DNA from: Candidatus Pacearchaeota archaeon
Lineage (GTDB): Archaea > Nanobdellota > Nanobdellia > Pacearchaeales > GW2011-AR1
Direction of reading: 5' to 3'
DNA length: 14,321 nt
NCBI GenBank assembly: GCA_018304175.1
Contig: JAGVWT010000010.1
Span: 1-14,321 of the forward strand
The position numbers and the translations under genes were made by a program. Under the pieces are notes generated by a model. That model was not told where the DNA came from and did no database searches. It was given only the letters and a program-made list of their open reading frames with translations. Below, in pieces: positions 7,061 to 8,158 of this stretch. Positions within the stretch are counted from its first letter, which is position 1. Every line of letters begins with the position of its first letter.

Positions 7061-7246
7061 AATTTATTGAAATTTTAGCTGAAAATTCACTCACTCCAAA
7101 GTTGCTTGATATTTATAATTTTTTAATGTAAATTTTGTTTTATGATATTAATTATTATTTAGGGGTTAGATAAGAATAATGATTTGGGAAGATAATATTC
7201 AATCTATAGTGAAGAAAATTTGTTCTATAATTTTTTGAACAAAAAC

Positions 7247-7254
7247 CTTAAAAA
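7247..7254 (+). promoter_or_regulatory. BRE/TATA of the RNase P RNA gene
   Basis: AACAAAAAC-CTTAAAAA, 28 nt before the P1 5' strand. Confidence 0.6.
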
Positions 7255-7274
7255 CTCTTTTTATTTAGGATTTT

Positions 7275-7673
7275 TGTAAGTCAGGAAGCTAACTCCGGAA
7301 TTCAGGAATTAATTTTCCAGATGTTGCAAAATAACAACGTCGAATTCTGAGGAAGGTCCGGCCACTAAGGGGCACCAAGGTTCCCCTTACACTAACCCCT
7401 CCTTTACTACACGGAGGAAATGTGTGGTTGTCTTTCGAAAGGAAGATTTCCGTAAGGAAAAGCAACAGAACAGAAACGGCACAGCTCTCACTGAACTTTG
7501 AATCATGCGATGAGTTACGACGTGAGAGATTTGATGAAACGGCTGACTCAATCGGTGCAACCTGCGCATCTCTTTAATGAGAAGAAAGGGCTTAGTCGAA
7601 TGTTAGCGAGTTCGGTTCGCTCCTGATAAAACAGAAAACGACGAACTACAGAAGCTGGCCTACCTGACTTACA
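7275..7673 (+). ncRNA. rnpB: Archaeal RNase P RNA (about 399 nt)
   Basis: P1 TGTAAGTCAGG/CCTGACTTACA (11 bp); P2 GCTAAC/GTTAGC; CR-I GAGGAAGGTCCGGC; CR-V ACAGAAGCTGGCCTA (P4 with bulged U); CR-II ACAGAAAC; CR-III TGAAAC; GGTGCAA; CR-IV CTTAGTCGAATG; GNRA-capped P8/P9; P12 CTCTCAC/GTGAGAG. Confidence 0.96.
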
Positions 7674-7706
7674 TAATTTTTTAAACACTTCTGAAATGAA
7701 TCATTT

Positions 7707-8060
7707 ATGGTAGACCCTAGAAATTTTATTTTAACTTGGGAAGATAATCCTAGCTGGGATGACTGTGTTCCAGTTGAACGAATAAGAATAATTGACGAGT
7801 TAACAAATAACAGCGAAGAAAAAAATGTTTGTCCTTACTTGAATAGGTTGGAACAAAGGTTTTATTATTGTGGTTCAAAAGCAGCCTTATCAAATTTAGA
7901 TTTTACAAAAAATCCAAACCCATTCAGTGCACAATATAATGCACAAGTTGACCATTTAGAACTGCAACTATGGTGTATGGCTTCGCCAGAAGAACGCGAG
8001 AAATGTATGTTTTTTCAAAAGGCAAAAGATAAAATCATAGAAGGCAAACAACATATTTAA
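7707..8060 (+). CDS. Hypothetical Cys-containing protein (117 aa)
   Basis: ORF track; TATA at 7680, 27 nt upstream; five Cys (CVP, CPYL, YYCG, LWCM, KCMF). Confidence 0.7.
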   Translation: MVDPRNFILTWEDNPSWDDCVPVERIRIIDELTNNSEEKNVCPYLNRLEQRFYYCGSKAALSNLDFTKNPNPFSAQYNAQVDHLELQLWCMASPEEREKCMFFQKAKDKIIEGKQHI

Positions 8061-8086: not shown

Positions 8087-8158
8087 GGGGCGGTAGCTCA
8101 GCGGGAGAGCACATGACTGAAGCTCATGGTGTCCGGGGTTCGACTCCCTGTCGCCCCA
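8087..8158 (+). tRNA. tRNA-Phe(GAA), intronless, CCA not encoded
   Basis: Acceptor GGGGCGG/TCGCCCC+A, D stem GCTC/GAGC, anticodon stem CATGA/TCATG with loop CTGAAGC, T loop GTTCGACT. Confidence 0.97.

Follow-up and report, generated by a model that had tools for sequence, protein, structure and literature searches.

The stretch of DNA analysed here (the window; 14,321 nucleotides of the forward strand) carries a complete archaeal RNase P RNA gene at positions 7275–7673 of the plus strand, with the 3′ end of an archaeal LSU rRNA at positions 1–293 and a tRNA-Phe at 8087–8158 as neighbours. RNase P RNA belongs to the small group of universal ribozymes, and the structural types in which it comes are a textbook example of RNA evolution. 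The source genome of the window (G000) comprises 544 kb in 17 contigs, is 88% complete and is archaeal; the organism is a DPANN archaeon. The gene is 399 nt long and is the sole copy found in this genome. An insert in the junction between its helices P5 and P7 (J5/7) is the subject of this study.

Identification of the RNase P RNA gene

An Rfam scan of the window at gathering thresholds reported no RNase P family. In a permissive cmscan search the RNaseP_arch model (RF00373) matched positions 7350–7674 with 78.4 bits (E = 7e-22), a score that does not reach the gathering score of 84 because the insert makes cmscan misplace CR-I onto P1/P2. A 5′ end of the RNA near 7350, as given by this alignment, was rejected; the true start is at 7275, and the relatives agree. 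The RNase P RNAs of relatives score 98–150 bits on the Rfam model. When the family was surveyed with Rfam, 126 of the 141 sampled genomes had an RNase P match, 94 of these 126 passed the gathering threshold and the lengths ranged from ∼224 to 440 nt, and the RNase P RNAs of this family are generally plastic.

All five conserved regions (CR-I to CR-V) are present in the window RNA, and so is the P4 pseudoknot with its bulged U, as judged from the cmscan alignment, the invariant columns and the pairing of P4 (98%), and 53 of the 53 invariant alignment columns are retained. A run of six T residues at 7677–7682 of the plus strand, read from the sequence directly 3′ of the RNA, is likely to be an archaeal terminator. 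The original prediction had recognized an RNase P RNA at this locus; that identification was confirmed, and each feature that it had described along the RNA was found again at the same positions.

Secondary structure and covariation

The window RNA was aligned with 19 homologs from related genomes, giving 20 sequences. The proposed full fold pairs 95.2% of the cells of this alignment, compared with 34–45% when the 3′ partners are slid by 1–3 columns. Compensatory changes on both sides occur in 59 of the 77 pairs, and none of 500 shuffles reached any of the observed measures. The whole RNA has a folding z-score of −5.0, and the P5/P7 junction folds to −20.6 kcal/mol (z = −3.9 versus shuffles).

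All of the following elements lie on the plus strand. P1 is formed by 7275–7285 with 7663–7673 (11 bp) and P2 by 7288–7293 with 7602–7607 (100% paired, four of six pairs compensatory). P3 (7296–7349) is branched and consists of a base helix, 7296–7303 with 7342–7349 (84% paired), and two inner hairpins; an expansion of ∼40 nt is found at P3 in the relatives too. CR-I and the 5′ strand of P4, with the bulged U7357, occupy the invariant columns at 7349–7362 and pair with 7654–7661, two of the eight P4 pairs covarying. P5 follows at once (7363–7366 with 7554–7557; 96% paired), and both-side changes occur in two of its four pairs.

The S-domain (7426–7553) comprises P7–P12 with CR-II and CR-III and is aligned by cmscan with high posterior probability. 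Compensatory changes were found in all five pairs of P7 (7426–7430 with 7549–7553), in all six pairs of P8 with its GAAA loop (7431–7446) and in four of the five pairs of P9 with its GUAA loop (7447–7460), and the earlier assignments of P5, P7, P8 and P9 are each supported by this covariation in the 20 sequences. P10–P12 with CR-II and CR-III extend to 7548, and seven of the ten pairs of P11/P12 are compensatory. P12 is almost wholly missing in G001, a genome of the same genus, and in G033 (alignment columns 319–370); reduction of P12 is otherwise known from Thermoproteaceae and a Mycoplasma (PMC2858038).

P6, P16 and P17 are absent from the window RNA. The P15 region, 29 nt between GCAA and CR-IV (7561–7589), consists of a 3-bp closing helix (three of three pairs compensatory) and a 23-nt loop or small hairpin, and is as minimal as had been predicted. 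P15 of the relatives is a hairpin of 4–5 bp with a short loop, and 34–36 model positions are deleted there. A P6-like pairing between 7420–7425 and 7564–7569, which the original prediction had put forward as a possibility, did not withstand analysis: it is at chance level, being equalled in 17% of shuffles of the linker alone and in 67% of shuffles of the whole junction, and no homolog shares it. CR-IV (7590–7601) and the 3′ strand of P2 (7590–7607 together) are placed by invariant columns and the cmscan alignment. Between the 3′ strands of P2 and P4 lies a hairpin (7609–7647) that is P19-like by position, 100% paired and compensatory in six of six pairs across the 20 sequences, followed by CR-V and the 3′ strand of P4 (7648–7662; invariant columns).

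The insert in the P5–P7 junction

The gap between P5 and P7 measures 59 nt. Compared with the RNA of G001, the extra material is 7366/7–7417, so that the insert proper is 51–52 nt long, and it consists of hairpin 1 (7366/7–7388/9), a linker (7390–7397) and hairpin 2 (7398–7417, with 7398–7402 pairing with 7413–7417). Positions 7418–7425 resemble the original linker in the alignment with G001 and others, and this residual segment is likely to be equivalent to the 6–7 nt linker of the relatives. The prediction of a two-hairpin insertion between P5 and P7, at the place where bacterial type B has P5.1, was therefore sound in its hairpins and its location, and the size of ∼53 nt that it gave is corrected to 51–52 nt within the 59-nt gap.

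CR-I and CR-II are 118 nt apart in the window RNA, 64–66 nt apart in seven relatives including G001, and 75 nt apart in the second genome of the same genus, G002. P5 and P7 are joined by a 7-nt linker in G001, and in G002 the junction holds an unrelated 5-bp hairpin. The two-hairpin insert is missing from all 19 other aligned homologs. A pattern running from CR-I through P5 into the first part of the insert had no matches among one genome per GTDB species and the JGI metagenome contigs, two scans that may not have included the window's own records.

Hairpins of other kinds are common at this site. A hairpin, each of different sequence, occupies J5/7 in 12 of the 19 other homologs, and in the six sequences that come from four other families it starts directly after P5 without exception. 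In G010 (L006:1648–1714) an unrelated 63-nt insert lies at the same site and P15 is enlarged too; a second copy of that insert is located elsewhere in the genome of G010 (L085:167–230, on G010:C22), with 75% identity (E = 3e-5), under a long open frame. By nature J5/7 is a permissive, variable junction, as the other hairpins of the relatives and P5.1 at the same place in bacterial type B show, and this permissiveness would be why the insert is tolerated.

In the assembly of G001, contig C15 stops precisely where the insert of the window starts, and contig C22 overlaps C15 by 49 nt and reads through. This break fits a branch of the assembly graph and gives a weak hint of polymorphism, with filled and empty alleles.

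A dispersed family of hairpin modules

When the genome was searched with its own RNase P RNA, the extra matches were confined to positions 7366–7406. BLAST gave 92–95% identity over 35–38 nt to three other genomic copies (best E = 3e-11), other copies being weaker or matching in the core only, and a 20-nt core with up to three mismatches occurs 13 times in the genome. The aligned copies share a G4–loop–C4 hairpin, a conserved linker of 7–8 nt and a C-rich strand that often opens a second hairpin. The copy in the RNase P RNA fits this pattern (match at 7369–7399) and aligns with a copy in a tRNA-Asp intron; the RNase P insert is a copy of a dispersed family of hairpin modules.

Covariation in a 2-bp lower helix of the module is free of exceptions in 37 copies taken from 15 genomes: the base located 3 nt ahead of the G-run and the fifth one following the C-run are U–A in 31 of them and C–G in the other six. 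Selection therefore acts on the structure of the module. In the RNase P copy one pair of the 2-bp lower helix is A·C (TAA for TGA), as in the copy at C16:12299, and an alternative continuous stem of 7 bp is possible. A reading of the module as a K-turn was rejected by eye, the bulged strand having no G-A dinucleotide. Rfam searches with E-values up to 10 over positions 7100–7900 of the window returned nothing for the module besides RNase P and a junk U3 match, and around the other copies they returned tRNAs only.

A strict pattern for the module gave 12 matches in G000 and none in the reversed control. Of 301 genomes sampled from the order, 15 contain it; these represent 10 of 122 genera and belong to a single family. 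In the other pattern-positive genomes every copy is either a tRNA intron or a tRNA 5′ insert, and no RNase P RNA contains one. One copy was found in G002 and none in G001, from which it follows that the family multiplied in the lineage of the window.

tRNA-Asp(GUC) has a 65-nt intron at the canonical position 37/38, and the copy at C14:126796 (minus strand) forms the body of this intron. The intron motif is a perfect hBHBh′ with h of 5 bp, H of 4 bp and h′ of 4 bp, and Rfam calls a tRNA of 137 nt there. ARAGORN missed this tRNA (G000:C14:126600–127000, minus strand) even in intron mode; 21–28 tRNAs are called in the genome, and several more are probably hidden by inserts or introns. Four copies lie directly upstream of tRNA genes, behind a duplicate of the first ∼14 bases of the tRNA, and four lie directly downstream of tRNA genes in the opposite orientation, adjoining a duplicate of the tRNA 3′ end. 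Two copies are intergenic. One of them, at C13:54251 (G000:C13:54050–54450), sits within a BHB-like motif with H of 4 bp, h of 5–6 bp and an excised length of ∼150 nt, and a long GC-rich stem closes this motif; the copy could represent an excised or circular RNA.

The gene of a Trm5/TYW2 methyltransferase (G000:C16:316–1305, minus strand) holds an antisense copy of the module at C16:570–607. This copy is one end of a stop-free, in-frame insertion of 177 nt (59 residues) that at least 11 orthologs do not have; in G007 an insertion of partial similarity, without the module, occupies the same Trm5 site. Around the Trm5 copy, a BHB candidate of 169 nt was rejected: its length would shift the frame, yet both flanks share one frame.

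Relative to the genes that they adjoin, copies are found in either orientation. From this and from the antisense, in-frame copy in Trm5 we infer that the module would move at the DNA level. Unlike the tRNA-flanking copies, the RNase P copy has no target duplication. Searches of the genome (88% complete) gave no family match to a Y1 transposase, TnpB or a reverse transcriptase.

Splicing and gene activity

A scan for 3-4-3 bulge–helix–bulge (BHB) motifs around all 13 copies recovered the tRNA-Asp intron and found no motif at the RNase P copy that preserves P4, P5 and P7. Every BHB candidate at the RNase P copy would delete CR-I/P4 or P7/P8 and was rejected. One 3-4-3 geometry does exist there, formed by 7362–7365 with 7424–7427 and having 3-nt bulges that reach into hairpin 1 and P8; its cut would remove the 5′ strand of P7, and an unusual route of processing is conceivable.

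The genome has a single splicing endonuclease gene (EndA), and its frame of 180 amino acids has the size of the alpha4 class. Endonucleases of the alpha4 class require the strict hBHBh′ motif (PMC3239211), and the EndA of this genome looks like a strict alpha4 type. The introns called by ARAGORN in the genome are in or beside the anticodon loop, consistent with a strict EndA. The insert is probably unspliced, because no usable splice motif is present and EndA appears to be of the strict type, and the mature RNA most likely retains it as a peripheral extension of two hairpins.

A protein-only RNase P (PIN_5/HARP) was not found in the genome. Rpp30 is present, and Pop5, Rpp29 and Rpp21 had no Pfam match in six-frame searches of the genome; these three may have diverged, may be encoded in the 12% of the genome that is missing, or may have been lost from a reduced enzyme. 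Many tRNA genes of the genome are necessarily transcribed with long leaders, and 5′ processing is therefore needed. The RNA is a genuine RNase P RNA and is probably working.

Comparison with known structural types

A literature search found no paper on the structure of RNase P RNA in DPANN archaea and none on an intron or a mobile element in an archaeal RNase P RNA. Archaeal type A RNAs have P8, P6/P16/P17 and P19 and no P5.1, and in archaeal type M all of these helices are absent and L15 is lacking too (PMC2858038, Table 3; PMC2475606). Bacterial type B has P8, P19 and P5.1 and no P6/P16/P17 (PMC2858038, Table 3), the contact between L5.1 and L15.1 replacing P6 (PMC5066622; PMC2858038, Table 3) and being what defines the function of type B (PMC5066622). 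Archaeal type T (Thermoproteaceae) is described as having a largely missing S-domain (PMC3579882).

The window RNA shares P1–P5, P7, P9–P12, P15 and CR-I to CR-V with archaeal types A and M (RF00373; Harris et al., 2001, via PMC2475606 and PMC2858038). P8 is found both in type A and in the window RNA, whereas P6/P16/P17 are found in type A alone. Type M and the window RNA both lack P6/P16/P17, and of these two the window RNA alone has P8, the P19-like hairpin and the J5/7 insert. Unlike type T, it keeps P7–P12 with CR-II and CR-III. The helix set thus fits none of archaeal types A, M and T, in agreement with the original prediction.

The window RNA and those of much of the order have P8, a P19-like hairpin and a helix element after P5, and have no P6/P16/P17. 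The order-level architecture is a modest new variant, in which a type-M-like P15 region is combined with P8, the P19-like hairpin and a frequent J5/7 hairpin, and the helix inventory of the catalytic domain in this lineage resembles that of bacterial type B. The type B RNA of Bacillus and the window RNA both have P8, an extra helix element directly behind P5 and a P19 or P19-like hairpin, and both are without P6/P16/P17. However, there is no sequence relationship between them, P10.1, P15.1 and P18 are lacking in the window RNA, and the element of the window is a two-hairpin mobile repeat known at this site from one genome. The helix elements of the window and of 12 of 19 relatives lie at the position of P5.1. 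Loop–loop complementarity of the L5.1–L15.1 kind was not above chance in the window RNA, and a loop–loop contact between the J5/7 insert and the enlarged P15 was not significant in G010 and G020.

The proposal that the insert defines a new structural type, which homologs without the insert would undermine, is not upheld. Such homologs were found (the 7-nt linker of G001 and the unrelated hairpin of G002), the public collections that were scanned gave no match, and the insert belongs to a dispersed family of modules. This species-specific representative of a mobile module of the intron family lies at a variable junction and is not the hallmark of a new type of RNase P.

Repeats inside the RNase P RNA gene are reportedly not without precedent: Vioque (1997, cited in PMC2858038) is said to have described STRR repeats in the gene of heterocyst-forming cyanobacteria. 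The cyanobacterial and archaeal elements would both be dispersed repeats in rnpB at a peripheral helix, whereas STRR elements are reportedly tandem heptamers of bacteria, located in P12, and the window holds a single structured module of 51 nt, of an intron family, in an archaeal J5/7. BHB tRNA introns of Thermoproteales have near-identical bodies at several genomic places, implying mobility (Fujishima et al., 2010, summarised in PMC4090602). In contrast to these introns, copies of the window's family also occur outside tRNAs without a splice motif, namely in the RNase P RNA, in tRNA flanks with duplicated ends and in an open reading frame. The Rickettsia palindromic elements are small palindromic mobile elements of a reduced genome that are kept in frame in protein genes (PMC10969869); they are ∼150 bp long, bacterial and not known as introns, whereas the module of the window is ∼50 nt long and archaeal.

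Origin and fate of the insert

We consider it probable that the gene encodes a functional RNase P RNA into which a mobile module of 51–52 nt was inserted at the DNA level, in J5/7, and in which the module is retained as a peripheral extension. A copy would have entered the single-stranded J5/7 once this lineage had separated from G001 and G002, the two genomes of the same genus. The inserted unit would be the module made up of the G4/C4 hairpin, the conserved linker of 7–8 nt and the second short hairpin, and the same family also yields canonical tRNA introns, the copies flanking tRNA genes and the in-frame copy in a protein gene. Having no usable BHB motif, the RNase P copy would stay in the mature RNA, where its effect may be near neutral.

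In the reading nearest to the original prediction, the retained module might have been domesticated as a brace that acts like P5.1 and stabilises a catalytic domain without P6/P16/P17, perhaps by touching the enlarged P15 loop, and the RNA would then be a functional new variant. Such a role would fit the presence of some J5/7 hairpin in most of the order, the co-occurrence of the two largest J5/7 inserts (those of the window and G010) with an enlarged P15, a region that is enlarged in G020 too, and the way in which L5.1–L15.1 stands in for P6 in type B (PMC5066622; PMC2858038, Table 3). It is nevertheless unlikely: no second genome is known to carry the insert, a linker of 6–7 nt suffices in seven relatives, the same module is found in unrelated contexts, and a 6-bp helix to the P15 region arises in the 17% (linker alone) and 67% (whole junction) of shuffles given above. 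Excision of the insert by the splicing endonuclease, with ligation of the exons, would make it the first known intron of an RNase P RNA. The module is indeed the body of the canonical tRNA-Asp intron and of tRNA introns in other genomes, the C13:54251 copy sits in a BHB-like motif and the genome splices many tRNA introns; however, no hBHBh′ or relaxed motif yields a product with P4, P5 and P7, the sole 3-4-3 geometry deletes the 5′ strand of P7 and EndA is apparently of the strict alpha4 type (PMC3239211), which makes splicing very improbable.

The same low probability is given to a gene that was disabled by a recent insertion, with 5′ processing relying on something else. The insertion is recent, being missing from the relatives of the same genus, and three RNase P protein families were undetected, yet the conserved regions and helices are intact in what is the only RNase P RNA gene, HARP was not found, the long tRNA leaders need to be removed and J5/7 of the relatives tolerates inserts. 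That a repeat copy was wrongly joined into the contig during assembly can be practically dismissed. The element is repeated in the genome and the assembly of G001 breaks at the same point, but the shared stretch of ∼38 nt is shorter than the usual assembly k-mers, both flanks continue the gene in register, and the RNase P copy is distinguished by a hairpin 2 and substitutions of its own.

Implications

These results explain why standard models miss or under-score the RNase P RNA in these genomes, approximately a quarter of the matches in the family being under the Rfam threshold; this bears on annotation and on claims that DPANN archaea lack RNase P. They also widen the known targets of mobile hairpin elements in DPANN archaea from tRNA genes to another structured RNA and an open reading frame. 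With a natural insertion variant and uninterrupted sister sequences at hand, the tolerance of J5/7 can be probed.

On the favoured reading, the catalytic domain of an essential ribozyme can take in and keep a small mobile element that is related to tRNA introns, which offers a concrete route for the origin of peripheral helices such as P5.1. A wider generalization, which we hold to be doubtful, is that the peripheral RNase P helices of this lineage arise by capture of mobile, intron-family hairpins in J5/7, the window being a fresh case and G010 an independent one with a different repeat, and that the module of the window is possibly already a P5.1-like brace. If capture of this kind did take place, the lineage would provide a live example of a ribozyme gaining structure, convergent with bacterial type B.
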